A stretch of DNA of 64,000 nucleotides from assembly GCA_965644315.1 (NCBI GenBank), contig CBFFRQ010000069.1:1390439-1454438 (forward strand), given 5' to 3'. The DNA comes from Caecitellus pseudoparvulus. Lineage: Eukaryota > Protista > Bigyra: Bicosoecida. The notes below the pieces were generated by a model that worked only from the letters and a program-made list of their open reading frames with translations, was not told the DNA's origin and did not search any database. Both the position numbers and the translations under genes were made by a program. This document shows, one piece after another, positions 6,500 to 48,911 of the stretch. Numbering within the stretch: the first letter of the stretch is position 1; every line of letters starts with the position of its first letter.

Positions 6500-6644
6500 G
6501 CGCTAACTTTTCACAATACAAATGTATCCGCAATTTCACGGGCTGCGACTCGCTCACGAGGTGCAGCCCAGTTTGTGGCCAGGCCCAGTCCACGCCCACT
6601 TCTTGTGCTTCACCTTGAGCGGGAAGCTGCCAGCAGAGCCAGGC

Positions 6645-8318
6645 ATGGCGTCTGCTGGCGGAATCTTCGAGGAGGCTGTCAGAATGAAGAGCGCCATGGT
6701 AGACCACAAGTGCAGGGCGTACAAAGCGAGGGCCCCCTCGCTGCAGCACTCCATTTTCCACCTTGACCAGTACAAAGACGGGCCGCACCGAAACGCCAAC
6801 GAAACGGAGTGCCTGGAATGGGCCGAGGGTCTCAAGGCAGAGGGGAACAGTGCAGTAGGGGAGAAGGACTGGAACGCAGCTACATTAAAGTATGAGCGAG
6901 CCCTTGGCCTGCTGCGCTTTATCGTCTCTTCCAGGGAAGACTGGCGCAGCAACTTGGCAGACGTTGACTTGGCGGTGGTGGACAGCGCAGCTGGCTCCTG
7001 CTGCTCGCTGGATGGCTCACGCAGGCCCAGCAGCGACTTCGGGTTGGGATCTTTGCCAGGCTTCTCAGAGGCTGGCAAAAGACAGGCGGCTCGGCTGTGT
7101 GCAGCGCTGTATGGAAATCTGTGCACTGTTGCCTTGGCACAGGGGCAGGCCTCGGTTGCGGCAGCGGAGGCTGCTGAGGGTCTCCGCGTCACGCCGGGCC
7201 ACCCCAAGCTGCTCATGAAGCGCGCCAAGAGCTGGATGCAGCGCAAGGGGGCTGGCACCACAGAGCTGCGCGCAGCGTTGCTGGACCTGAAGACTGCCGT
7301 TGACATGTTCAAGCAGGCTGGGGACCTGTACGACGTGGGCAGCCGGGTGCTCTCGCAACTCGCTGCAGCGTACAAGGAGCATGCTTCCATGGCTGCTGCA
7401 CAGCATGCAAAGGACAAGGCAGCTTTTGCAGGCCTCTTTGAGCGGGGGTCAATTGTGCAAGCCGCAGAGGAGAGCGAAGCGGCACCCACGTTGCCCGCCC
7501 CTCACAGCCGTCTCCCAGACACAACCCGCGCACAGCTGGCCGCGATGCGCCGCGCAAGAGCGGAAGCAGAGGCTGAAGGGCGCGTTCAAGATGCGAAAGA
7601 GCTCTCGGTGCACTTGAGCCGTGCAGAGGCCAGGCTGGCCGCCGGCGCAGGGCTGGAGCCGTCCCTCGACTTCTCAAAGCCAACCCCAGAGATGCGATCG
7701 CTGGCGGAGGAGATGGGCCTCGATCTGGATGACCCTGCTGTGCAGCGGGAGCTTGAGGTCGTGGATGCTCAGGCAGCTGCGAAGAGAGGCTTTGCTAGTG
7801 CCGCCGGCGCCGCCGCTGCGGCATCTACGGGCAAGCTGCCGAAGTCCAATGCGCCCGAAGTGACTCTGGACGAACTGGAAGAGCACATTCGCAAAATGCC
7901 GCTGCCAGCCCTTGTGGAGTTCATGGTGCAGCAGGACATAGCCTCGGAACCCACCGTGCGAGGGTGGAGTGAGCAGCAGGTGCGCGAGAAAGCAGTTGCA
8001 ATGCTGCGCTCCAGCGAAGACCCCATGGCTGGTGAACGCAAGGCCAGGTACGCCATGGTGAGGTACATTGCATTTACTGCCATTTGCCTGTTCATGCTGT
8101 GGCGGCTGTACAACATGGGCCTGCTGACGTGGCTCTTCACAGGCCAAACGCCGGCCGGGTGGGGTTCCCAGGCGGCCATAGCCGCCGCCTCAGCAACAGG
8201 GGCGACGAGCGCAGCACAAGATGCAGTCCCTGCCTACCCCACCACAAGTGACAGCGACGGCGACGCGGCGTTCGGAGAACTGGAGGTCGATCCCCACGGC
8301 AGACTGCACCGCGTGTAG
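6645..8318 (+). CDS. TPR-repeat protein with C-terminal transmembrane helix (co-chaperone-like)
   Basis: TPR motifs AEGLKAEGNSAV...KYERAL, LYGNLCTVAL, KLLMKRAKS. Hydrophobic segment YIAFTAICLFMLWRLYNMGLLTWLF near the C-terminus. Start at 6645 chosen on context (ggcATGg); upstream in-frame ATG at 6522 also exists. Confidence 0.65.
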   Translation: MASAGGIFEEAVRMKSAMVDHKCRAYKARAPSLQHSIFHLDQYKDGPHRNANETECLEWAEGLKAEGNSAVGEKDWNAATLKYERALGLLRFIVSSREDWRSNLADVDLAVVDSAAGSCCSLDGSRRPSSDFGLGSLPGFSEAGKRQAARLCAALYGNLCTVALAQGQASVAAAEAAEGLRVTPGHPKLLMKRAKSWMQRKGAGTTELRAALLDLKTAVDMFKQAGDLYDVGSRVLSQLAAAYKEHASMAAAQHAKDKAAFAGLFERGSIVQAAEESEAAPTLPAPHSRLPDTTRAQLAAMRRARAEAEAEGRVQDAKELSVHLSRAEARLAAGAGLEPSLDFSKPTPEMRSLAEEMGLDLDDPAVQRELEVVDAQAAAKRGFASAAGAAAAASTGKLPKSNAPEVTLDELEEHIRKMPLPALVEFMVQQDIASEPTVRGWSEQQVREKAVAMLRSSEDPMAGERKARYAMVRYIAFTAICLFMLWRLYNMGLLTWLFTGQTPAGWGSQAAIAAASATGATSAAQDAVPAYPTTSDSDGDAAFGELEVDPHGRLHRV

Positions 8319-20257: not shown

Positions 20258-23065
20258 ATGAGTGAAAGTGCTTCCCTGGCGGAGAGTAGCGCACTGGATA
20301 CCGGAACTGTGCGTTGAAGAGCGCCTGCAGCCAATTTGAGGCAGTGCACCGGACCCATTTGCCTTCCGCGTAGGTTGCCGAGTCCGTCGCTCCCGGGGAC
20401 AGCGCAGTGCTGCCCAGCATTGCGGACGATGCTGCTTCTGTCTCGGACTATGACGAAGGCGAGGACACCGAAGAAGAGGCGCAAGGCATTGAGACGGTAT
20501 GCACGGCTTCCCGCGCCGGGTCATGGCAACGCAGCGGAAACGCCGCCTCGCACACTGCATGCGTGTACTGTGCAGGGGCTCACGCAAAACCAAGGGCGCT
20601 TGCTGTACATGATCAGCTTGTACACGAGGCCAGCACGTTCGGGGCTGGAGAAGGAGGAGTGGGTTCGGAAGCAAGCCCTGCTTGTGCTCATCTACGAGGC
20701 AGTGGTGGCGCAGGTGCTGGACTACGACTATGCCCCTGCTAGTACCATCGTCAATGGGCACCGCCGGTACTTCAACAAGTCCCAGGAAGGCACCAGTGAC
20801 GTGGACTTCCTTCGAGAGGAAGACATGCTCAATGGGCTAAAGCTGTCCAGCAAGTCCTACACGCCCGTGACTTGCTACCAGGTGTCCGCAAAAGGCATGG
20901 CCTTGGTGAAGAAGATGCCAAAGGCCGACAAGGATGCTGTGCATGAGCTCGTCTATGCGCCAGGCACCCGTGAGCTGCTGCGGGTTGTCTTTCGACACGA
21001 TGAGTACTTGCTGGTCGGCCCCGGTGGCTTCGAGCGCCCGTCATCGGTGACAGATTGTGAAGACGTGTCATACGTGTCATCGGCATATATCCCACAGTGC
21101 CTGCGTTTTGGGGGCCGGCCAACACTGTCGAATGCCCACCGTGCTGGGGAGTGTGCCGTGTCCGTGTCAAACATTCGGGATGAGCTGGACGAAGTGCTCA
21201 CACTGAACTCCGTGTCAATTGTTGTGGCCGAGTTCATACCCTTCGGTGCAAATCAAATTGTGCAGATGAACCACAACCTTGGTTCCACCGAGCGAGTGCA
21301 AGGGGGCTTCTTCACCGCCCTTGTTGATGACAACGCGGATGGCACAAAGTTCGAAGTTGCGCCGGGGCTGACCTCCGTGAACATCTTGGACTACACCCTG
21401 ACCAAGCACATCAACTTCGAGGCTGACATCAAGCTGCCTGAAGACGATGGGATTGTGCAGGTGGAGACGTTCGGGGTGTCCGTCAATGCGGACGGGACGG
21501 CATTCTACGGCATGCAGGTGGAGGCGGTCATGGACCGGATCAAGGACAACATCTCCCTGGATCACCTGTCCCGCCTGCTTGCAGATGTGCACACGGACAG
21601 CTCCTCCATTGTGGACTCGGTCGTCTCAGCATACCAGCGCCGGCTGTTGAACCTCATCTTCAACGGGGACGCAGGCAACAGGGACAAGATGAACCTCATC
21701 ATTGCCAACGAGATCACGCCTCACCTGACAGCTGAAGAGTACATGGACAAAGGGGAGTACGAGAACGAGCTGAAGCAGGTGCTCGGGGACACCCGGGCGG
21801 CGTTTGACATCTCAGAGCACGACACGCTCGTGTTTGGCGAGACTGGTCTGCTCATCGCAGGTCCCAACTCCAGACACCACGAGCCGCTGCTGTGCTCGTA
21901 TCTGCAGTTCACATCCATGGATCTGTTTGTGCGCAACTACTGGAACCGCATGTTCTTGCTGCTGGACAACATGAAGGAGGTTCGCCGCCTCATCAATAAC
22001 TACACCTCAGACCCCACCAGCCTCCCGAAGATCAGGCGCAGGCTGCAGCAGCTCTCTGACAATGTGCGCCTGATGAACGAAGTACTGGGGTACCTGACAG
22101 AGTCATTGGAGTCGTGCGAGATCCCCCCTGAGCCGCTGGACGCCGCGGGCCGGGCACTGTACGAACGGCTTCAAATCGCAGACCTGGCCGGGCAGCTCTC
22201 CATGAGAGTGCTGGACTTGAAGAAGAACATGGATGGGGCTGGAGCAGAGCTGCAGTTCTTGAAATCGATGGCAAGCATTGTTGCTGAGAACCAAGCAGCG
22301 AGCTTGGTGGAGAATCTGCGCTCCAACACCCGGCAGCTCATGCTGCTGCACGAGACCAACGAGAAGACCTCTGCTACGGTGGAGATCTTGCAGTACCTGG
22401 GCTCAGCGATGTTTGCGTTCGGCCTCATTGACAGGCTCATTGGCCCTGGTTGGAGCGTCTCGCAGTCCGAGTACGTGTTTGCGCGGTACCAAGACCCTGA
22501 AGTCTGGGACAAAGATCTCGTCCCAGGCGCGTGGCAGTCCTTCGTGAATGCCATGATTGTTGGCGCACCGACCATGTGGTTTTGGATTTCCCTTGCCATG
22601 TGGGCAGCAGTGCTGTATGCCACCAACCGCATGTTAACGCAGATGAAGTTCGTGTCCTTGGGCAAAATGACGGTCCGCATCCGCATCATGCAGCGTCTTG
22701 ACCTGGAACGCTTCCACGCGTACGTTCAGACGAAGGTGACTGCCCTCGAGGAGAGGGACTTCCAAGAACGCAACAGCATCATTCGTGTGTCGTGGGAGGA
22801 GGTCGACAAGGAAGCATGGGGAGGCTCAGCACCATACATTGTCCTGGAGTACGACGCTGAGACGCAGTACTTGCACTCCATTTCCATCAACTACAACCGC
22901 CGTGATGCCATCAAAAATCTAGCTCTCACCGCACCTGAGCTGCGCAACAAGCTTTGTGATGAAATGCTGGACGCACAGGTGTTCGAAGATGGCAACTACA
23001 CCTTCCGGGAGGCGACAGCTGAAGACTTGGAGGAGTTTGGGGCGATGAAGCTGCAGATGGGCTGA
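20258..23065 (+). CDS. Uncharacterised ~900-aa protein: winged-helix-like N-region, helical stalk, two C-terminal TM helices
   Basis: Long ORF with strong codon bias. Predicted exons MSESASLA.. (introns ~20309-20372 and 20497-20575) joining GLTQNQGRLLYMISLY. TM segments ILQYLGSAMFAFGLI and MWFWISLAMWAAVLY. Confidence 0.8.
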
Positions 23066-37800: not shown

Positions 37801-39752
37801 AGTTCTTCGTCACGGAAGCGTCCAGAATGTTGCCTTGCTTCCCGTCCGGCGCGTGCGAGGTAAACGCAGCCTCGGGGGCTACCCAGTGCGCACGAGGGCA
37901 CCAAGGCATCATATGCGGGGAGTGTGCAACGGGGTGGGCTCGATCCTCTGCGAGGACTCTGTGCATGCAGTGTGCCACGGATGGCGGAGATCTGGCCCTT
38001 CTGCTTGTCATGTTGGGTTTCTTGTGTCTGCTTTTGACGGCGATGATCTGCAGCCGATCGGGGACGAGGGTGTCCACCCCTCCAACCGCTATCTTCCGCA
38101 TTCTGTCTTCCTGGTTCCAAGTAGCAGCCCTGCTCATTGCAGCAGGGCTCATCCCGTCGACAGGGCTGGACTCCACGGTGTCCATTCTGAGCACTGCCAC
38201 TGCCGGAATCAGTTTCTCGAGCAGCAACGCACAGTGTGCGCTGGGGCTCTCATGGTACCAACAACTGCACGCGGCAGCTGCTCTGCCACTTGTGTGCGTC
38301 GCCGCTCCACTGCTCTGTGCCGCCGCCTGCAACCTCGTGCGTGGCAGGCTGGCGGTGCACAGGCATCGTTCCGCCGCAGTCCACCCTTCTGGAGCCCCTG
38401 TATTGAGCTGTTGTGGATGGAGGCGAGCAAGCCATATTCTCCCTGCTGGTCCACACCTGGACGACGTATACCCCAGCGGGCGCTCGTCGCTGTCAGGCTC
38501 CGCACGGACCAGCTCAGGCCTAGAGAGCACCCCATCGAGATCTTGGGACAGTCCGATTGCAGCGCTTGTCATGAAGACACGGAGCAGCCCTAAGCGCCTT
38601 TTCAAGCCCCTAGCACCTCTTGATGGAGGCAGGCATTCCGGCCGTGGCGCGCTTCCCCCCCGTCACCTGCCAAAGCAACAGCTTCCACGCGACATCGTGC
38701 GGGCCCGCAGAGCCAGTGATGCCATGAAGCGAGGCAAAGGTTTCATCCCGAGCCTCCCGCGCATTGCATCGCTCGCGCTTTCGACGGGCACTGTGGACAA
38801 TGAGGAGCACTTGCGAAGCCAGCGCGAGCGGGGCACTGACACTCCTGTCAAACCCCCCTCCCCAATGAGCTACGGCATTCGGGCAGCTCTGATCCTTGTG
38901 TTTGTCGTACACTTCAGCGTTGTGCAGGTGTACTTGAACATGCTGGAGCTGCTGCCGGAGCCGGTGTACGGCTTCAACGTTTTCAGGCACAGCCCTGGAC
39001 ACGGCTCCTTTGATCGGCAGTACAGCCACGCAAGCACCGTTGCCACGCTGGCCTTGCTGGTCGTGGGGCTGGGTGCGCCACTCGGTGCTGCAGTGTACCT
39101 GGGGGCGAACCGCACTCGGCTTCACGCTCACAGCATGCAGCACAGGGCAGGGTTCCTGTTCGCAGGTTTCCGCCTGCACCGGCGCATGTGCTGTGGTGGT
39201 TTCTGGTTCTGGGAGTTGCTCGTGACGCTGCGCAAGGTCCTGGTCATGACTGTCGTTGTGACGGTGGACTCCGAGGGCACGAAAGGCATGCTCCTGGCCC
39301 TCCTTCTGGGCGTGAGCCTCATCGCACACACAGCCGCGCAGCCTTACAAGGCCCGCCTCCTGAATGCCCTGGAAGGCTGTGCCGTCGCGTGCCTGTGGCT
39401 CGGGGTGCTGTTGGGGATCGTGTCCAACGAAGCCCGTGGGCGAGACCCAGCGGCAGTGTTGGTCATTGCTGCGGTGACAGGGCTTCTCAACGTGGCCTTC
39501 CTGCTGCTTTGCTTGTGTGTGCTGCTCAGCGTCTCCTGGTCCGCGCTGCGCCGCAGCCTGCGCCTCGCTTGGAAAGCGCACACCTCCAGCCTCAGCCTGC
39601 GGGAGGCTGCAGAGCTGCCTAAGCCCTCTGGCAGCTTGGGCTTGCTGACTCTGGTGTGGGCACAGGCGAGCTGGAGGCAGAGATTGCTTCTGTTGGTGAG
39701 CGCGGTCGGCGGCGCAAGCAGAGAAGACATCCACCGTGCATTCTCCATGTAG
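31866..39752 (+). CDS. Giant receptor-like protein: 7 C-type-lectin-like domains, Ser/Thr/Pro mucin stalk, Ig-like domains, Cys-rich repeats, multi-TM C-terminus (5' end unresolved, lies upstream)
   Basis: CTLD starts CPATW...WLGLNDI (introns 32092-32159 and 32331-32391 restore frame), TWHAARAAC, CSPGW, CPEGW, CPSGR, CAPGT, CPSGW. PST-rich stalk 35205-35940. CARGHQGIICGEC; GFLFAGF...WELLVTLRK; QPY...LNALE. Confidence 0.85.
35205..35940 (+). repeat. Coding low-complexity Ser/Thr/Pro repeat (mucin-like stalk)
   Basis: TPSTSGTPS-type units; near-identical DNA copies CCCTCCACTTCAGGCACCCCATCC near 35259 and 35307. Confidence 0.8.
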
Positions 39753-40042
39753 TCCAGGGGCCATGCCTCACGCAACAAGCCCGCCCCCCCGCCTCTACAG
39801 CTTCGCCTGCATGGCGCTGCTGCTGAGAGCGGCGCCGAACGTCTCTCCCCACGCAGGGTGTTGTTGCGGACCGGCGAAGCCGGGGGCGCCTCGAATGGCA
39901 GCAAGGTACTTCTCGTACACCTGCCCAGCGAAGCCGCCCACGGCGCTGCACAGTACGAAATCGGAGTGGCCGAAGGCGTCACAGGCGGCCACGAGGTCGT
40001 GTCTGACGCAGTCGGCGAGCGATTGCTGGCTGCAGTGCAGTG
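39681..40042 (+). repeat. Direct repeat copy 1 (~360 bp): true 3' end of the lectin receptor plus orphan 3' fragment of ACOX
   Basis: Aligns by eye to 43450-43823. The ACOX-derived part 39795-40042 differs at only 2 positions that I could find. Confidence 0.93.
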
Positions 40043-40461
40043 CAGTTGGGTGTGGGCCTCGGAGCGAAGCCACACCGTTGGCTGCACCAGTCTGGACAGA
40101 GGAAAGCTGCAGAGTGGCTGCAACGTCTTGGTTCTTGCAGGAGATCTCCTTCTCGCGGCACTCAGTGCTTATGCGCTTTGGCAGCAGCACACGCAAGCTC
40201 GGGCGAACCAGCGCTGCTGCGGAATACGCCAGGCTGGCCAGCCAAGCGCTGGTGCGCGCGAACAATCAATCTGCCAGAAATATATTCCGTTTCCAGCTGC
40301 CATGCATGGTTTTCATAGCCTCATAGCCGTTTTGCACTGGCTACGTGCCTTGCTCGAGTCCTACCGGCTGGCGCGAGCTGTCCTCCAGCTGGAATGACTG
40401 CTGCGTTGCCACTTTGACTGAAGCCACCTGTTCACCGTCCCAAGCCAGCGCCACGCCAGAC

Positions 40462-41706
40462 ATGAGGGGCTCTTGCTGCTGCTGGAAGAACCTCTTACAG
40501 TTCTGTGCGCAAGTCTGTCACGATTGTTGCGGTTGCTTGGGTGAGACCGGCGCCGGGCAGGTAAGAAACGCGAAACGCGGAGGTTTCAAAGCACGGGGCA
40601 ACCCGCTGAGCAACGCCTGCACGCAATGCTACATCTTGCAGAGGAAAAATGCAGACGCACGTGCGGCTTGCTGGCAGTGGCTGAATGGCTGCTGCTTGAT
40701 TCTCACATTCGTACTGTCGGGAGCAGGTTGGCTCGGGCACGCTGCACGCTTGGCAATGACTCAAAAAGACACTACCGCGCAGTTGATCCAGATAATCTTG
40801 GATGTGCTCGCATGGCTCAAAGTCGTGTATTCTGCCCGCCCGTGCAGACGGGACGCGCTTCCACCTCAAGGAGCTGCAGGCCTGTCCGGGCAGATGGTAT
40901 ATGCAGGCGGCAAGTTGGTGTCTGCAAAAGCTGGGCTGCTCACAAAGCTACCAGCAGCCCTCGACATGGGCTGGTGCTGTGACCGGCGTCGCGACCACGT
41001 CCAAGACAACGGTACGGCTGTGCAAGATCCGTCGTCGGCACAGCCCCCCCACACTTCCTCGGCAGCGGAGGTGGAAGCAAGCGCTGCAATTGCATCGTTC
41101 GACTCGTGCTGTCCGCTAGGCTGGATGCTTCGATTCCTTTGCTGCATGCCCAATGTTGTGCCTGCTTCTGTGCCCGAAAATGCCAGCAAGCGCCAGTTCC
41201 TCCGTGCGGCGGTGACTACTCATGAGCGCCTCCGTCACCGCCTGTGCTTATCCTCGGCGCTGGTGCGGCTGTCACTCCTTAATTCCGTGTTGACCTTTGT
41301 CCTGGGTGTGTATGGTCTCACTGCCACGATCTCAGCAGCTGAATCCTCCTCTACGGCCTCCACGGTTCAAGCATGTCAGCTTGCTGTCACTGCGATTAGA
41401 CTGCTTGCTGCTTGGCTACCAGACCTCCTGCGCCCTGGTGACTTTTGCGATACGCACTGCTGCCGTCATTGCTGGACCACTTTCGGATCCGAATGCTGTG
41501 TGTCCCGCCGTGGGCAACGGCGCGTGAGCTCCGCCACTGCCGAAGCTGCTAATCAAGATGAAGCCGATCACCCCGCGCCAGGTGGAGAAGCGTCAGACCA
41601 AGCGCAGGAGGACATGCACGAACGCCCGAAGATGTATGAGAACCCTCTCCACAGCGCCGCCGCGCGTTCTGCCAGTGGCAGTGGCGAGAGGAAGGGTAGG
41701 TGTTGA
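40462..41706 (+). CDS. Hypothetical Cys-rich membrane protein, ~4 TM (2 x 2-TM unit)
   Basis: ORF 40345-41706; ATG at 40462; likely in-frame intron 40561-40641 (GTAAGA...TTGCAG). Many CC motifs and two LTFVL-containing hydrophobic hairpins. Confidence 0.6.
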   Translation: MRGSCCCWKNLLQFCAQVCHDCCGCLGETGAGQVRNAKRGGFKARGNPLSNACTQCYILQRKNADARAACWQWLNGCCLILTFVLSGAGWLGHAARLAMTQKDTTAQLIQIILDVLAWLKVVYSARPCRRDALPPQGAAGLSGQMVYAGGKLVSAKAGLLTKLPAALDMGWCCDRRRDHVQDNGTAVQDPSSAQPPHTSSAAEVEASAAIASFDSCCPLGWMLRFLCCMPNVVPASVPENASKRQFLRAAVTTHERLRHRLCLSSALVRLSLLNSVLTFVLGVYGLTATISAAESSSTASTVQACQLAVTAIRLLAAWLPDLLRPGDFCDTHCCRHCWTTFGSECCVSRRGQRRVSSATAEAANQDEADHPAPGGEASDQAQEDMHERPKMYENPLHSAAARSASGSGERKGRC

Positions 41707-41806: not shown

Positions 41807-43186
41807 TCACTGAATTTCGCAACCGCCGTCGCACAGCACACTCGTGGTGCTCCACACGCAAGCAGGATCGCGTGCTTGCTCTTCAAGCAAAGGCAGAAGA
41901 GCCTCCCAGTGCACGTCCACAAAGAGCAGCGCATCGCGCGAGCGGACGACCATGAGACGGGCCCTAAATCCATTAGGATAAGGGGTACTCGGATCACGTT
42001 CGTCGTCTGCCCCCTCACCAGCTTCCTTGCCCCAGCCCGCACTCAATTCTCTCCCAACTGACTCGAGGTCCAGCAGTGCCGTGCCCACCATGGATGTTTG
42101 CTTGGAGAACGGTGTCCAGTGCAGCCAATTTTCCACCGACTTTCGCCCTGTCACGTACCTGAGAAGTCTGCCAGAGTGCCCAGCAGCACTCCGCGGAAAG
42201 TCTCTCCCCAGGTGGACTTCACGGGATGCAGAGGCCACGTTGAGGTTGTCAGACTGTTCCCACAGTACATGTAGCAGCACTCGTGACGGCCGAAGCTCGT
42301 ACTTGCTCGGCTGGTGCAGGACCCAGGCCAACGGCAGACGCGGCAGATTCTTCGCTGCCCGAAGGGCAAGCAGCTCTGGCAGATGTGCGGGCTTCATCTT
42401 CCCACATGCCGCTTCCATCAGGTGCCGGAAGCACAGCACCTCATGCTCCTCGGAGTGCTGCACGACATCATCTGCGAAGCACTCCAGCGCCCCTTGCCTC
42501 CAAACTGGCTCGCGCAACGGCGCTGCGCGGACGATGTCTAGGCCAGACACCCAACGCAAAAGCTCGTCTGCGTGGTCCTCTGCCAGCAACACCCCATCCC
42601 ACACGTTCTCAGGGCACTCGTAGGACAGGCTCTCGCTGGCTCGTGTCATGGCCTGGTTCAGCAGGCCAAGCACTGCTCTCTGCCTGTCCTCGAGCGGTGC
42701 ACGAGCAAAAGGGCATCCTGGCCCGTATGGAGTGGCAAAGCTCTTGATGCCCTCCGCCAACTGCACAAGAACTTGACAGCAGGCTGAGGCAAGCTGGACA
42801 TGCGTCACAGCAGGGTGGCAGTGTGGGACGAGTCGATTTCCAGTGGCGTCTGCAGCGAGGCCAAGAAGCCTGGCTTGAAGGGCCGCCGCTGGGCCGTGCT
42901 CCGGGAGAATGACGGACGCACTCCCCGTGATCGAGGGGTGACGTGGTGCGTTCAGCACACACACTGTTTCAGGAAGCGCGCACAGAAGGTCGCGAAGCAC
43001 ATCTTTTGGCAGCTTCTTGGTCATCGAGGCCCACTCCACACTCTCCATGTGCTTCCGCCAGCTTGTGGGGACGTGCACGGGTGCCTGAGCGTCTTCCAGA
43101 GCAACGTCGTCGGACGATGTCGATGATTCCACGTACTGCTGGAGGAGGTGGTGCGATTCCTCCTCATCTGCGGGCTTGGCGGCCAT
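41807..43186 (-). CDS. Hypothetical protein (~460 aa)
   Basis: Long ORF starting MAAKPADEEE with globular, helical composition; AATGCA motif 19 nt after the stop. No family recognised. Confidence 0.55.
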   Translation of the reverse strand: MAAKPADEEESHHLLQQYVESSTSSDDVALEDAQAPVHVPTSWRKHMESVEWASMTKKLPKDVLRDLLCALPETVCVLNAPRHPSITGSASVILPEHGPAAALQARLLGLAADATGNRLVPHCHPAVTHVQLASACCQVLVQLAEGIKSFATPYGPGCPFARAPLEDRQRAVLGLLNQAMTRASESLSYECPENVWDGVLLAEDHADELLRWVSGLDIVRAAPLREPVWRQGALECFADDVVQHSEEHEVLCFRHLMEAACGKMKPAHLPELLALRAAKNLPRLPLAWVLHQPSKYELRPSRVLLHVLWEQSDNLNVASASREVHLGRDFPRSAAGHSGRLLRYVTGRKSVENWLHWTPFSKQTSMVGTALLDLESVGRELSAGWGKEAGEGADDERDPSTPYPNGFRARLMVVRSRDALLFVDVHWEALLPLLEEQARDPACVWSTTSVLCDGGCEIQ

Positions 43187-43449
43187 TGCAAAGGCTGCGT
43201 TGCTGGGCCAATTTCCGCAGCGGCGGCCGAAACGCGAGGCTTGCACTGTGCATGCGCTGGAGACGTGGCGCTGGTGAGCCTGCAGAGCGTCCGAGTGCGT
43301 AGTTGTAGTGAGGATTGGTTTTGTTTTGTGAGCGGTAGTGACTGTTGTGCGCGGCAGTCAAGACCGGGTACCACCAGGTGGCTGGCATGGTGACGCGAAG
43401 GACGCACCTGAACGCGCCCGACCAAGCACAGGGCGGGGTCCCTGCTCGC

Positions 43450-43823
43450 AGGCTTCTCCTGCTGGTGAGCGCGGTCGGCGGCGCCAGCAGAGAAGACATC
43501 CACCGTGCATTCTCCATGTAGTCCAGTGGCTATGCCTCCTGCCCTGGCCTCACGCGACAAGTCCGGCACCCACCCCTACAGCTTCGCCTGCATGGCGCTG
43601 CTGCTGAGAGCGGCGCCGAACGTCTCTCCCCACGCAGGGTGTTGTTGCGGACCGGCGAAGCCGGGGGCGCCTCGAATGGCAGCAAGGTACTTCTCGTACA
43701 CCTGCCCAGCGAAGCCGCCCACGGCGCTGCACAGTACGAAATCGGAGTGGCCGAAGGCGTCGCAGGCGGCCACGAGGTCGTGTCTGACGCAGTCAGCGAG
43801 CGATTGCTGGCTGCAGTGCAGTG
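43450..43823 (+). repeat. Direct repeat copy 2: orphan tail of the lectin receptor plus true 3' end of ACOX
   Basis: Encodes RLLLLVSAVGGASREDIHRAFSM* (stop 43519-43521) on + and the ACOX C-terminus on -. Confidence 0.93.
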
Positions 43824-45821
43824 ACTCCCAGGTACACAGCGGTACATGCCCGACAAAGCTTGCCGCTGCGCGATGGATGCAGTCCGTGGCAAAAATTGCA
43901 GCAAGCCGGAGCAGCAGCAGCTTCGTTTCGGTCCCAACTTGGAATGTTGCTTCGCTTCCCAGGCCTCTGGCCGCTCTCCAGCGCTGCCAGTACCCTTGCG
44001 CTCCTTTCACTGCTGGGTCTTGTGCCCATTCACAGAGAGCTTTGACAGAAAAGGCGTCGGCAAAAGCGAGAGCCATGGGAACCATGTCCTCAGCTGCCTC
44101 GGCTGGGGAAAGCTCAGCTCGCGAGAGCTTGCTAGCAAGCGCCATGGCGCCCTGAGCCGCACACCAACGTAAACCGGACACACAGCGCTGCACAAACTGG
44201 ATGATGTCCTCGTGAGTCGATGCTTTGCACAGGCGGTACTCCGCTGCCGACTCGGGGAAGGGGGTGTCCTTTGCCAGGGCTTCAGGGAGCCAGGTGAGGG
44301 CAGGGGACGGCTCCGCCCCTTTGCTCAGAGCACGCAAACCCTTGAGGAGGAAGCCCCCTGCCTGCAAGCACATGAGAGTGTTGTCCCCCTCCCACGTGGG
44401 CATCACAGCCATGTCCGCTTGGATACCAGGCAGGCCTGAGTAGGACGAGTAACCCACACCACCACAAGCTTGCCGACAAGTGTCGATGCCGTCACAGGCA
44501 GCCCACGTGGTCGACGCTTTCAGCGCCGCAGAGAGGTTGTGCAGCATTTTCAAGGCGGAGATGGCGGGGGACATATTGCTTGTGCCGCGCACTGCAGCTG
44601 CGAGGGTGGCAGTCACCTCCTCGTGCACGCGCTCAAGGGCCCAGCCTGTGGCGTGCAGAGCCACACTGCGAGCGAGCATGCGGGCCATCTTCCGGGACTG
44701 AATCGGGTAGTCCAGCACAACTGCCTCACCAGATCCGGTCGCGGGTGGTGGATCCAGCTGGTGTGTTTGTGCCTGCTCTGGGGCAGGTTCGTCTTGGGCG
44801 GGAAACTGTCGGCGAGCGGCTAGGTAGCGCACAGCGATGGTAGTAGCCATGGAGAGGTACCCCGATGAAGCGTGGGTCATCATGATGCGCCCGCCTACAA
44901 GGGCAAAGAAGGACAGCTGCTGCAAAGGTGAAACTGTGACGCCGCCTTGCCTGTCCACTTTTGTGTAGCGGCAGAGCAGCGCTGAGCGAGGCACCTTGAC
45001 GTGGGAAAACCATAGAATCCCATTGTCCAGTGCGTTGCGCCCCATCTTGCTGCCCATGTCGCCTGCAGTGATGCCTGGGAGTGCAGCACCAGTGGCCATG
45101 TCACGAAGTGGCACGATGAAGGCGTTCAGGCCGAGCACCTTGCCAGCCACCACCAGCTGGGCAAACACGACCCCATGGGTGGCGGTCTTGCCAGCAGAGC
45201 CAATCCAGACTTTCGCGGACGTTTCATTGGGGGTGTGGATGTCAAACTGGTCAGTGTCTGGCATGTAAGTGGCTGTCGTCTCGATGCCCCGAGCGTAGCT
45301 GCCGTGGCCAAGCTCAGTCATGCAAAAGCAGCCAATGACGCCAAAGTCCCTCAGAGCAGGCTCCCACTGCTGCACTTGTTCGGCGCTGCCGAGCCCCCGG
45401 ATGGCTGGAGCGAACAAATCCCGATGATTGCTGATGCGGCTGTGTGCGCCTGGGTACGCCAGAGCCATGAGCCTGTCCCGCACCTGTGCTGTCTCTTCAT
45501 CATCTTGGCGAAGGTACTGAATGAGGCGAGTCACGACTTTAGCACTGGCCTGGCGCTCTTCCTCTCGACTTGCATTTACCCTCGCTGGCCCGCTTTGAAA
45601 CACCTGCGGCAGAGGCGAGAGGAGGGTGTGCCGGCTGTGTCTGGCTGCCCTGTATAGCTCCGCTGCGCGAGGCCCACCTCATCTCTGGATAACTGGGCGT
45701 CCACTGCCTCCTTCAAAGCAGCATGAGATGGACCCCCATTCAAGAGGATGTGAAGCTCTCGGCGTGGGAAGCTTGCCTGTGCACGCTTGCGCTGCACCGT
45801 GCTGGGAAGGGCGCTGGCCAT
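43576..45821 (-). CDS. ACOX: Peroxisomal acyl-CoA oxidase
   Basis: GCFCMTELGHGS, ETTATY, HTP...KVWIG, MGRNALDNG, RQACGGVGY, TWEGDNTL. C-terminal PTS1 AKL. Intron 45604-45677. Confidence 0.95.
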
Positions 45822-46593
45822 TCCTGTGATGTGATGCTGGCGCAAGCTGCAACTGGCTCACATGTACCCGGAAGCCATGCAGACCACATAGGGCGCGTGG
45901 GACCCGGGGAGTGTACGCGTTGTGGTGGGGATGGGCTGCTGGGTTCCTGCTCAGCCCGTGGTCACCAAGCGCTCCCCGTGGCAGCAGTAGGGGCCTTCGA
46001 TTGGCAAGTGAGGGGTGTGAGGGGGGCCAACACGCCAAGCGGACTGACCCCCGGAAGCCTACAAGTCCCGCGCCAAAACAACAAACCCCCAACACACAAA
46101 CATCCTTTACCAACCCTTTATTCCACCAGCACTACCGTTCATTCTGATCTTCGTCTTCAAGGGAGCCACATTCTGTACGTGCACACACCACCACGCCAAC
46201 CTGCCCTTGTCCGCCTCGTGTTGCAACGGCACCCCTGTCATGGCTTCTACGCGTCCATTTGCTTGTGTTGTGGGGAATTGTATGGTTTTGTGAGAAAGGG
46301 CAGCCTCAAATGCCGCCCAACAGCCTTGTTTCTGCGAATCGAAGGAGTGGTCCTTGCCTACAACTTTGCACCTCCGACATTCGATGCGCCGCACCTCCTG
46401 CCCACGCTCGTGAGCTCACCTCCGCTATCCACCATGCTTGTGTGTTTGCAAATTCCGTGGGTGTATTCCTCTGCGGCACCTCCGGAGGCCCAGCGTGTGG
46501 GCGCGTTGTGGCCAGCGTTTCAGCCGCGCACTGTTTCCCTCAGCACCACGCCAACACCTCCCACACCATCACTCCTCGCAGACACCGTTAGCC

Positions 46594-47064
46594 ATGGCTG
46601 CATCTCACAGCGCTGTCAACCGCCTGCCTGAGTTCCAGGAGGTCTGGGACGCCTACCCTGAAGGCGGCCAGAGTGACGTGCTCAAGAGCCTCGGGCAGGA
46701 GAAGGAGGGCGTTTGGCGCCGTGAGGAGAGCTCTGCACTCTTCGTGTCTCTTGCCCTGGCCGGCGCCGGACACGGCCAGCCCCGCACATTCAAGGTCAAG
46801 CCCGAGCAGCTGAAGGACGCTGCGGGCAACCTGCTGTGCGTTGATGTGTCGGACTTGGTCTCCAACCTGAAGGAGAACATCGGCGCGCCCAAGCACGCGA
46901 AGGACGCTAGCAAGATTGCCGGGCAGAAGGGCATCGTCTACTTTGAGGGTGTGGCCGCCATCAAGGATCAGTCGGGCCACATTGACCTGTTCGATGGCAC
47001 CACGACTAAGGGCACTGAGTACTTCACTGACGCCACCAAGGTGTGGTTCTGGGAGATGAAGTGA
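46594..47064 (+). CDS. Tae4-family (T6SS amidase effector 4, NlpC/P60-like fold) homologue with Cys-to-Ser at the catalytic position
   Basis: 156 aa, colinear with the Tae4 pattern: P.F..W; (N-x-C-A..S.AL) read as ESSALFVSLAL; L...G.P; GQKGIVYF; SGHIDLFDG; terminal YF...VWFWEMK. Strong C/G-ending codon bias like host housekeeping genes. Confidence 0.8.
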   Translation: MAASHSAVNRLPEFQEVWDAYPEGGQSDVLKSLGQEKEGVWRREESSALFVSLALAGAGHGQPRTFKVKPEQLKDAAGNLLCVDVSDLVSNLKENIGAPKHAKDASKIAGQKGIVYFEGVAAIKDQSGHIDLFDGTTTKGTEYFTDATKVWFWEMK

Positions 47065-47098
47065 GCAGACAGGCACCCGTAGATTCCCAATTCAGACA

Positions 47099-48911
47099 TC
47101 ACCTTCCGCTCCGACTGCGGGCGCTGCCTAGGCCACGCCTGCTCCCTCGTGGTGTGCTGCTGCCGCTGGACAAGCCACGCTTGCCGGCACTGCGAGTAGA
47201 GGGCGTGCCTGGGGCACTGCCTCCTGCGCCCGCCGCGGCCGTGACTGGGGTGGGGGCGGCTCGTGAAATGGCTGGCGCAAGGGACTGGCTAAAGTCGGCA
47301 CCCAGCATAGACGTGTACTTGCTGCCGGGGTGTGCGACCACTGGACCATCCTTCCAAATCAAGTCAAAGCCACCGATGCTGGTCTCATCCCCCGCCAACT
47401 TGCCTTCCATGTCCACAACGTCAAACGTGTCGTGCAGCAACTTGAACTTGCGGTCGTAATCCTCCCTCGTGTTGGCAGTCAGCTGAAACGCGTGCACGCG
47501 AGGATAGTGGCACGGTGGAGTTTGCGCGCAGGCTGGAGTCCAGCAAACGCACCGAGGGGGAGGCATTCACTTCGATGAGCCATGGTCGTAAGTCGGCGTC
47601 GAAGAGGAAGTCATACCCGTATAGCTCGTAGCAGTGTTTGTCTGTGATCATGCATCGCTGCACAGACATCAGGGAGCGTACGACAATGCCCTCCATGCCC
47701 TGAAACAGCGTGTCCACCGCCGCAACGCCGTGCTTGGAGATGAGGTGCATCTTGAGCGATCGCAAGTCCCACTTGCCACCTGTCTGCGTACTCAAGCACG
47801 AGCACGGTGATGCAGGGGTTCAGCCTGCCAAGCCTTCGTGGGTGAGCACACACCTCCGCATTGTAGTGTTCGCCGTGCTTCTGAATGGCCACATTCGTGC
47901 AATGAACCTCGACATCGTCGACATCCGCCATGGCAGAGGAGTACCGCCTGTGAAGGGTGGCGGAGCGCACTTGTGTGTTGAGGGAGTGGGTCTTTCAGGT
48001 CTCGTGCACTGTCAATCGCGGGAGACGCACCTTGCCGAGAAGCGCGCAAAACCTGCGCGGTACAGCCACACCGTCAGCGGGGAGAACGATGGCACGAGAA
48101 CATACATGCGCATGTCGAACTTCTTGCCACCGATAAGGTACGGGTTGGATATGTACCGCTGTACCACGTAGGGCTCAACAGTGGGGTTTTCTGGTTTCCA
48201 GCGCTTGTCGCTGCGCCAGTCCGACACCTGCGACAGCTTCGTGACGAGGAAGATGCCCTTGCCCTGCGCTCTGCCAACAGGCTTCATAATCCACACAGGG
48301 GACCGGGATCCCAAGCGCTTGAACTCCTCCTTGAATAGGGCGTAGTCACCAGGCAACGTGAAGGTGATGGGGCAGAAGTCAAACTCGGCAGCCTCATCAG
48401 TTCTGCAGGCCGAAGGAGCTTCCTCCGTACATGTGATGCGTTCCCCGATCAGTGCCTGCATGCATGCGGCCCACTCACCTCCCATCACGCTCTAGCTGTC
48501 GCTTCATCTTCTTCACGTTCTTCATGAGGTTGTCCTTCCTGCACAGCTGCAGCGGAAACCAGCAGACAGTGAACCCGCTGGCGTTACAACGGCGAAACGC
48601 CGCCACTCACCTCCCTGCAATTGCGGTAATGGTTCACCTTCTGGTGGCTGTCCATGTGCTGCGTGTCAAAAATCTCGTTCACCAGCTCCCTGTCTGCCCA
48701 GGCTACGTCCCACGCCCTGTGAAGCGGTGCAGGGTCGGTGCAGAGAGCGACCTTCGCTGTCACGCTGGCCCACGCACCCATCCATGTCCACCTCCTTCCA
48801 GCCCCTTCGGCACATGACATCGTAGACGGTGTTGTGGAAGCTTGTGTGGAAGCGAATGGGCCCGTCCGCTCGACGCCTTCGATGCAGACCAGGCGCATCG
48901 CTGGCTGCCAT
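47099..48911 (-). CDS. TTLL9: Tubulin polyglutamylase, TTLL9-like; multi-exon
   Basis: IRFHTSFHNTVYDVM, VNHYRN, WIMKPVGRAQGKGIFL, YVVQRYISNPYLIGGKKFDMRMY, HCTNVAIQK, CYELYGYD, PWLIEVNASPS, GGFDLIW, spread over exons separated by short GT-AG introns. Confidence 0.9.

Follow-up and report, generated by a model that had tools for sequence, protein, structure and literature searches.

A Tae4-fold protein without the catalytic cysteine, encoded by an intron-bearing gene of the protist Caecitellus pseudoparvulus

Tae4-type proteins in bacteria and eukaryotes

The closest characterised counterparts of the protein described here are the Tae4 effectors of bacterial type VI secretion systems (T6SS), such as Ssp1, StTae4, EcTae4 and AtTae4 (Pfam PF14113). 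According to PMC3852654, PMC6277958 and PMC3695027, Tae4 catalysis relies on a Cys-His pair together with an Asp at either His+2 or His+11. The oxyanion hole is attributed to the Cys and the preceding Thr in PMC3852654 and to Cys44 and Ile99 by Benz et al. (PMC3695027), and immunity proteins are described as touching the RV segment and the Arg of the nucleophile motif where the cleft opens (PMC3759425, PMC3852654). The Tae4 family also includes ordinary secreted hydrolases, as indicated by a comparison set of Cys-type proteins in which 39 of 134 begin with a signal-like stretch and some members include an SH3 or M23 domain.

Tae-type genes of inferred bacterial origin occur in eukaryotes as well. 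Nematostella nvDae4 (PMC8713801) and tick Dae2 (10.1101/2020.04.10.036376) are described as secreted, Cys-dependent, active antibacterial proteins with signal peptides, and the Tae4 of Giardia muris is reported as a recent transfer (PMC7641422). Nematostella possesses a second tae4 homologue, LOC5507684, which according to PMC8713801 lacks the catalytic Cys; judging by its accession it adjoins the active copy, and one supplementary row, compared by eye, gives it an ATGH lid as in the Cys-type set, so that the Cys loss in Nematostella looks separate from that considered below. RipD and SERA5 offer more remote parallels, being portrayed as papain-like folds with a disabled triad in which the fold is retained and needed. 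RipD belongs to the bacterial envelope and still binds peptidoglycan, and SERA5 is a large secreted C1A protein; both are analogues rather than relatives, RipD being not near in the VIA ranking and reaching a Foldseek E of 0.45. Silicateins are cathepsin-type secreted sponge proteins. Like the present protein, they naturally carry Ser where papain has its Cys, and they retain the His.

The gene examined here lies in a 64-kb stretch of DNA (the window, analysed as a whole) from the bicosoecid Caecitellus pseudoparvulus. Its product resembles the Tae4 effectors in fold, in the catalytic His and the Asp at His+2, in its single-domain architecture and in the absence of a signal peptide. It differs from them in having Ser in place of Cys, in the loss of the Asn, the motif Arg and the RV Arg, in the absence of the winding-loop Cys pair, in being acidic rather than basic, and in sharing only 20-25% identity, and the gene itself is eukaryotic and intron-bearing, without a secretion system or an immunity gene. 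In contrast to nvDae4 and Dae2, the protein has neither the Cys nor a signal peptide.

A spliced and transcribed nuclear gene

The 156-aa open reading frame is flanked by a divergent acyl-CoA oxidase (ACOX) gene upstream and a convergent tubulin-tyrosine-ligase-like (TTL) gene downstream, labelled TTLL9-like in the original prediction. The features of the locus are as follows.

43576 to 45821, minus strand: ACOX gene, product ending in AKL, with a 74-nt intron (Pfam ACOX families; intron seen in RNA)
46090 to 46174, plus strand: non-coding 5' UTR exon 1, its start being where RNA contigs begin and not a mapped 5' end
46175 to 46581, plus strand: 407-nt GT..AG intron of the 5' UTR, absent from the spliced contigs of two of the four RNA runs
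46594 to 47064, plus strand: coding sequence (CDS) for the 156-aa Tae4-fold protein that lacks the Cys, within exon 2 (46582 to about 47097)
46732 to 46734, plus strand: Ser47 (TCT), standing where Tae4 has its catalytic Cys and opening helix 47-57
46843 to 46845, plus strand: Asp84, where the RV-motif Arg is expected (profile alignment)
46978 to 46980, plus strand: His129 (CAC), the Tae4 catalytic His, on strand 128-133
46984 to 46986, plus strand: Asp131 (His+2), by sequence corresponding to the third member of the Ssp1/AtTae4-type triad (PMC3852654, PMC6277958)
47099 to 48911, minus strand: TTL gene (Pfam TTL, E 9e-35; intron seen in RNA)

In the RNA contigs X15 (46096-46174) and X19 (46090-46174), exon 1 is joined directly to position 46582. 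As exon 1 has no ATG and contains an in-frame TGA, the first ATG being at 46594, it represents 5' UTR, and with translation starting at 46594 the 5' exon contributes no signal peptide. The AG at 46580-46581, proposed in the original prediction as an acceptor that could add a 5' exon, is thus used, but the exon that it adds is non-coding and supplies no signal peptide. The predicted TCT (46732-46734) and CAC (46978-46980) codons were likewise found in place.

Part of the stretch is contained in 20 of 24 sequencing runs, of which eight (four RNA, four DNA-type) were examined as assembled contigs rather than raw reads, X17 and X18 resembling one data set. At this contig level the TCT codon is unchanged in 4/4 RNA and 4/4 DNA-type runs, one of which may be the source of the window. 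The CDS is covered in all four RNA runs, and the intron is spliced out in two (X15 and X19). The junctions to the flanking genes, whose continuity had been a concern, are spanned by single contigs, namely X4 and X8 (both 45000-48600, 3.6 kb) and X7 (45242-48600). Contigs of the DNA runs hold nine variable sites in the 407-nt intron and one in the 471-nt CDS (binomial p 0.006), and all three CDS variable sites across all runs are synonymous, a pattern that fits purifying selection on the CDS.

Codon use in the CDS is strongly biased, as predicted: GC3s is 0.81, the CAI (0.81) is the highest of 15 window ORFs and the ENC (37.8) the third lowest of the 15. Such bias suggests that the gene may be highly expressed. 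The original description of the gene as well expressed agrees with this bias and with the presence of a transcript in RNA contigs, but a high level was not borne out; RNA contig depth cannot rank genes, hence no expression level was taken from it.

An orthologue with 57% identity was identified on a metagenome contig, L001, where the order ACOX (minus strand), Tae4-like gene (plus) and TTL gene (minus) is the same as in the window. Identity between the two contigs amounts to 56% for ACOX and 79% for the TTL exon, and in L001 an AG resembling a splice acceptor lies a short way ahead of the orthologue start. For the Tae4-like gene, dN is 0.42 and dS 1.09 (NG86, with dS probably too low given the codon bias), giving a dN/dS of about 0.4. 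Ser47 is encoded by TCA in the orthologue, so the Cys-to-Ser replacement is no recent point change. The 5' UTR intron, the synteny with L001 and the purifying selection support an old integration, in line with the age originally suggested. It is hardly credible that the gene is an artefact, be it a sequencing error, a bacterial contaminant, a chimera or a decaying pseudogene, in view of the TCT codon in 8/8 runs, the contigs across both junctions, the spliced transcript, the syntenic orthologue with Ser as TCA and the dN/dS of about 0.4. The Tae4-like gene is a real nuclear, spliced and transcribed protist gene.

The surroundings are eukaryotic: other window genes include one matching SRP54_euk above the cut-off, a DEAH helicase and WD40 and TTL genes, and the host eukaryote sequence occurs in marine runs. 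Neither a Tai4 immunity gene nor a T6SS context accompanies the gene, its neighbours being ACOX and TTL both in the window and in L001, and no second copy was found within the 64-kb window. Packing is tight, with 35 nt between the convergent stops of the Tae4-like and TTL genes (47064-47099) and about 270 nt from the ACOX start to the divergent 5' UTR exon (45821-46090).

Some further features of the region were recorded. A 380-bp direct repeat with 92% identity (39677-40042 and 43448-43823) covers the last 82 ACOX codons (98.8% amino acid identity) and the 3' end of a large C-type-lectin gene, and between its copies lie two long ORFs (40327-41703, plus strand; 41810-43357, minus strand) without a Pfam or PHROG match. 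The repeat and the intervening ORFs resemble an insertion or a local duplication; in L001, ACOX adjoins a TRP-like gene instead. Two more long ORFs without a Pfam or PHROG match are found at 6507-8315 (plus strand, 603 codons) and 20318-23062 (plus strand, 915 codons). A second, related organism is represented by contigs in X4, X7, X8 and X13 that match short parts of the TTL gene (48093-48296).

Fold, active site and the wider Cys-less group

The Tae4 assignment of the ORF, originally made from its layout (GQKGIVYF, SGHIDLFDG and the terminal FWEMK, all present), is corroborated by both profile and structure. PF14113 is the sole Pfam family matched (E 7.9e-12; the score of 45.8 bits clears the curated cut-off of 27), and NCBIfam and PHROG returned no family for the protein. 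The AlphaFold model, built from a 123-sequence alignment, has a pLDDT of 92.1; in a Foldseek search of the PDB, all 11 matches at E<=0.001 are Tae4/Ssp1 chains, and no viral model was matched at this threshold. VIA-align placed Ssp1 first (Z 18.2, rmsd 1.9 A over 137 residues), followed by StTae4 (Z 17.9), with the best non-Tae4 fold at Z 8.7. An Atlas model of the protein is concordant (TM 0.79 to a Tae4 cluster, the nearest clusters being 88-100% bacterial). When a profile of the Cys-less proteins was compared with solved structures, the seven matches were all Tae4/Ssp1 and included no eukaryotic chain.

In profile alignments with StTae4, EcTae4 and AtTae4, Ser47 coincides with the catalytic Cys and Asp84 with the Arg of the RV motif, confirming the originally noted E-S-S-A-L-F motif, which takes the place of N-x-C-x-x-R and contains no Cys, and the change from RV to DV. 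The motif Arg is Phe in the window protein and Lys in five of its eight close relatives. By sequence, His129 and the putative third residue Asp131 are both present. The protein is a Tae4-fold derivative that falls outside active Tae4/Dae4 by its lack of the Cys and of a signal. That it nevertheless serves as an active peptidoglycan endopeptidase in the ordinary Dae4 role, reaching the food vacuole or the surface by a route that needs no signal peptide, is very improbable. The Tae4 fold is complete, bacterial Tae4 effectors likewise do without signal peptides, and predictors are reported to miss some signal peptides of Trichomonas NlpC proteins (10.1101/320382). However, the site has no Cys, which is described as required in Ssp1, StTae4 and nvDae4 (PMC3852654, PMC3695027, PMC8713801), and Ser was no substitute in NlpC_A1 (10.1101/320382). 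Moreover, both characterised Dae proteins have signal peptides, while the N-terminus of the window protein scores only 0.06 on a hydrophobicity proxy.

Searches for close relatives returned 5 of 38 and 15 of 7,968 candidates, and eight proteins with 56-86% identity to the window protein were used. Ser occupies the Cys site in all eight, as expected if the replacement is conserved among orthologues, and the His is also kept in 8/8; since 64 of 145 columns are invariant among these relatives, two kept residues are weak evidence for catalysis. The short N-terminal start is identical in all seven close relatives with a complete N-terminus. The residue before Ser, Ser46 in the window protein, is Pro in five of the eight and in none of the 134 comparison proteins; Pro lacks the main-chain NH, a group counted as part of the oxyanion hole in PMC3852654. 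At His+2, three of the eight have Asp and five Thr, the Thr carriers being the same five that have Pro before Ser. These five have Asp or Glu at His+12, as do some Cys-type proteins, so that an acid is found at His+2 or His+12 in 8/8, and Glu142 is invariant. A swap of the triad acid between the two known Tae4 positions was considered, but is weakened by the Gly at His+11 in 8/8 and the acid at His+12. Of the cleft residues Asn45, Arg50 and Arg84, present in 122, 126 and 105 of the 134 comparison proteins, none is retained in any of the eight. Trp41-Arg42-Arg43, Lys124-Asp125-Gln126, Lys139-Gly140 and Glu142-Tyr143-Phe144, in the lid and cleft, are invariant in 8/8, and with Arg42, Arg43, Lys124 and Lys139 among them the cleft of the close relatives is not simply acidic. 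L002, L003 and L004, tried as further relatives, proved to be chance matches to unrelated prokaryotic genes without profile support.

The original prediction treated the protein as a lone remodelled copy; rather, among the matches listed, the window gene groups with about 30 Cys-less, signal-less and mostly acidic Tae4-fold proteins. A representative search listed 150 of its 249 matches at E<=0.001, and a further search listed 15 of 1,277. The 134 comparison proteins, presumed bacterial, have Cys at the nucleophile site in 128 cases, Ser in four, Ala in one and a gap in one. Counts within the Cys-less group do not represent independent events, as kin share residues: at the Cys site, Cys is found in 0/30 and Ser in 26/30, versus Cys in 128/133 of the comparison set. 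The catalytic His is present in 134/134 comparison proteins, whereas 8 of the 29 non-redundant Cys-less proteins, spread over several branches, lack it (P0146, unalignable there, omitted). Position 45 is Asn in 3/29 Cys-less and 122/134 comparison proteins, being mostly acidic in the former, and position 84 is Asp or Glu in 23/32 Cys-less proteins (including 8/8 close relatives) versus 0/134 in the comparison set, where it is Arg in 105 and Arg or Lys in 114 of 134. A role of Asn45 and Arg84 in substrate binding may be inferred from their conservation and the contacts with immunity proteins. Median pI is 5.5 and 6.2 in Cys-less proteins versus 8.7 in the comparison set, and a hydrophobic N-terminal stretch occurs in 1/32 (an apparent intron read-through) versus 39/134. 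Structural Gly, Pro and aromatic positions are retained in the Cys-less group.

The more distant Cys-less proteins comprise 21 rows (two near-duplicates), about 35% identical to one another and 27% to the close relatives. Their motif reads D-D-S-x-x-R, with Arg50 retained in 16/17, and one of them, P0023, was modelled with a Tae4 fold (pLDDT 89.5, Z 18.6, rmsd 2.1 A, 144 residues aligned). P0022 originates from MMETSP, and P0040, P0144, P0146 and P0170 contain non-homologous stretches resembling read-through introns; on these grounds, the distant group is likely eukaryotic. It also displays a basic K-x-G-K-P-R-H motif at window-protein positions 95-101 (Lys95, Lys98 and Arg100 each in 17/21), which varies among the comparison proteins and may mark a new surface for binding.

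A FastTree phylogeny was built on 155 proteins, after 14 of the 169 had been removed as fragments, near-copies or overlong rows; in it, 27 Cys-less proteins form one clade with support 0.876. In an 83-row tree, 26 Cys-less rows fall on one side of a branch with SH-aLRT 82. Once ten motif columns are removed, the Cys-less rows form two neighbouring groups (support 93, including a Cys-type group, and 95). A tree holding them together has a score higher by 7.1 log units, and the AU test does not reject it (p-AU 0.64), which allows one origin; these alignments give weak support to a common origin of the Cys-less proteins. As to the donor, the unrooted quick trees (146-156 columns, few strong branches) speak neither for nor against nesting within a bacterial tae4 clade. 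The T6SS donor originally assumed did not find support, as the closest Cys-type protein among the matches listed is 34% identical and the family includes secreted hydrolases. The best match outside the clade among those listed, P0021, is a 448-aa protein in which a Cys-type Tae4 repeat occurs three times in tandem.

Bacterial-looking Tae4 proteins, too, have here and there exchanged the catalytic Cys for Ser or Ala while keeping the His (P0169, P0069, P0052, P0079 and P0061), P0169 having a signal-like N-terminus and an SH3_3 domain. Judging by these sequences, Cys loss recurs in the Tae4 family. Pattern scans based on the close clade, P0121 and P0039 found no relative in viral contigs, and a scan of prokaryote genomes no true one; such scans detect close relatives only, the wide alignment being too diverse to serve them, so absence from viruses and prokaryotes is not proven. 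Plasmids gave no match, and phage records one weak unannotated match (E 0.006, query P0023).

The literature searched describes no signal-less, Ser-type group of protist Tae4 proteins, and the alignments and supplements of Chou et al. 2015 (Nature 518:98) may include dae4 genes from protists or without the Cys. Within the literature searched, the original impression of an undescribed form holds for the Ser-type, signal-less group, the new element being its about 30 relatives among the matches listed, but not for Cys loss as such, since PMC8713801 already presents a Cys-less dae4 paralogue in Nematostella.

Possible functions of the Cys-less protein

The decay of the His, the Pro before Ser, the re-charged cleft and the missing signal are best accounted for by an old protein that has lost catalysis, resides in the cytosol and binds a new ligand, a reading to which a probability of roughly 0.45 is assigned. 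A bacterial Tae4-type gene would have entered a protist by an old transfer, and replacement of Cys by Ser would probably have abolished peptidoglycan cutting. The protein, apparently without a signal peptide on the hydrophobicity proxy, would remain in the cytosol, where the re-charged cleft may bind a host peptide or protein other than peptidoglycan, probably one with basic residues, and hold it without cleavage as a substrate-trap-like pseudoenzyme. This origin would be common to the window protein and about 20 more distant Cys-less proteins. Precedents agree in part: Cys-to-Ser replacement inactivates the Trichomonas NlpC/P60 hydrolase NlpC_A1 (10.1101/320382), and SERA5 with its natural Ser is described as non-enzymatic, silicateins being the exception (PMC4671257). 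Against a dead binder stand the Ssp1-type triad Ser47-His129-Asp131 and the Ser rather than Pro at position 46 in the window protein, the His in 8/8 close relatives, and the invariant basic residues Arg42, Arg43, Lys124 and Lys139. The acid at His+12 in the five relatives with Thr at His+2, the differing oxyanion-hole assignment by Benz et al. and the Arg50 retained in 16/17 of the distant group count against it as well.

A second reading is a serine hydrolase on the papain-like scaffold, in which Ser47 would be activated by His129 and Asp131 (in relatives, by an acid at His+12 or His+13) and would attack an amide or ester other than the Tae4 peptidoglycan bond. Such an enzyme is unlikely, even though Ser47 and His129 are kept in all eight close relatives together with Glu142 and an acid at His+2 or His+12, the site is filled by Ser rather than Ala or Gly in 26/30, four scattered comparison proteins combine Ser with His (one of these also bearing an SH3 domain and starting in a signal-like way), and in silicateins a papain fold naturally uses a catalytic Ser (PMC4671257). 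The argument from retention is weakened by the 64 of 145 invariant columns, the His is missing in 8/29 wider relatives, Pro precedes Ser in five of the eight close ones, and Ser47 opens helix 47-57 in the model and may be purely structural; the authors of PMC4671257, moreover, state that they know of no Cys-to-Ser swap retaining significant activity. A broader version, in which a toxin captured long ago switched its nucleophile to become a cytosolic Ser-His-Asp NlpC/P60 hydrolase with a new substrate, heading a pan-protist family of which some branches later lost catalysis, is similarly doubtful. The original prediction had left both a pseudoenzyme and a Ser nucleophile in play; the decay of the His among the about 30 Cys-less relatives favours the former over the latter.

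Muropeptide sensing is exemplified by NOD1. A protein NOD1-like in role and RipD-like in binding could, by analogy, act as a muropeptide sensor or scavenger, that is, a dead enzyme still binding gamma-D-Glu-mDAP fragments leaked from food vacuoles. The bond recognised by Tae4 is indeed D-Glu-mDAP (PMC3695027, PMC3852654), RipD is reported to bind peptidoglycan as a non-catalytic NlpC/P60 protein (PMC12067865), the Cys-less Nematostella paralogue is described as induced alongside antibacterial genes (PMC8713801), and lid and cleft segments are invariant in 8/8 close relatives. Yet the near-universal Asn45 and Arg84 are lost and often replaced by acidic residues, which disfavours an anionic stem peptide, the scanned members contain no signalling or second domain, and the putative bacterivory of the host is presupposed, so that this role, too, appears improbable.

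The reading preferred here, a dead cytosolic binder, would set the window protein apart from the characterised dae genes, which kept their bacterial job of secreted, Cys-dependent killing, whereas here the fold is under selection without the nucleophile or an export signal. If the protein is dead, its 156 aa would make it a manageable example of how a toxin became a binding module of the cytosol, which may serve the protist to sense peptidoglycan; should it be active, it would represent a rare natural Cys-to-Ser nucleophile switch within a papain-like fold.
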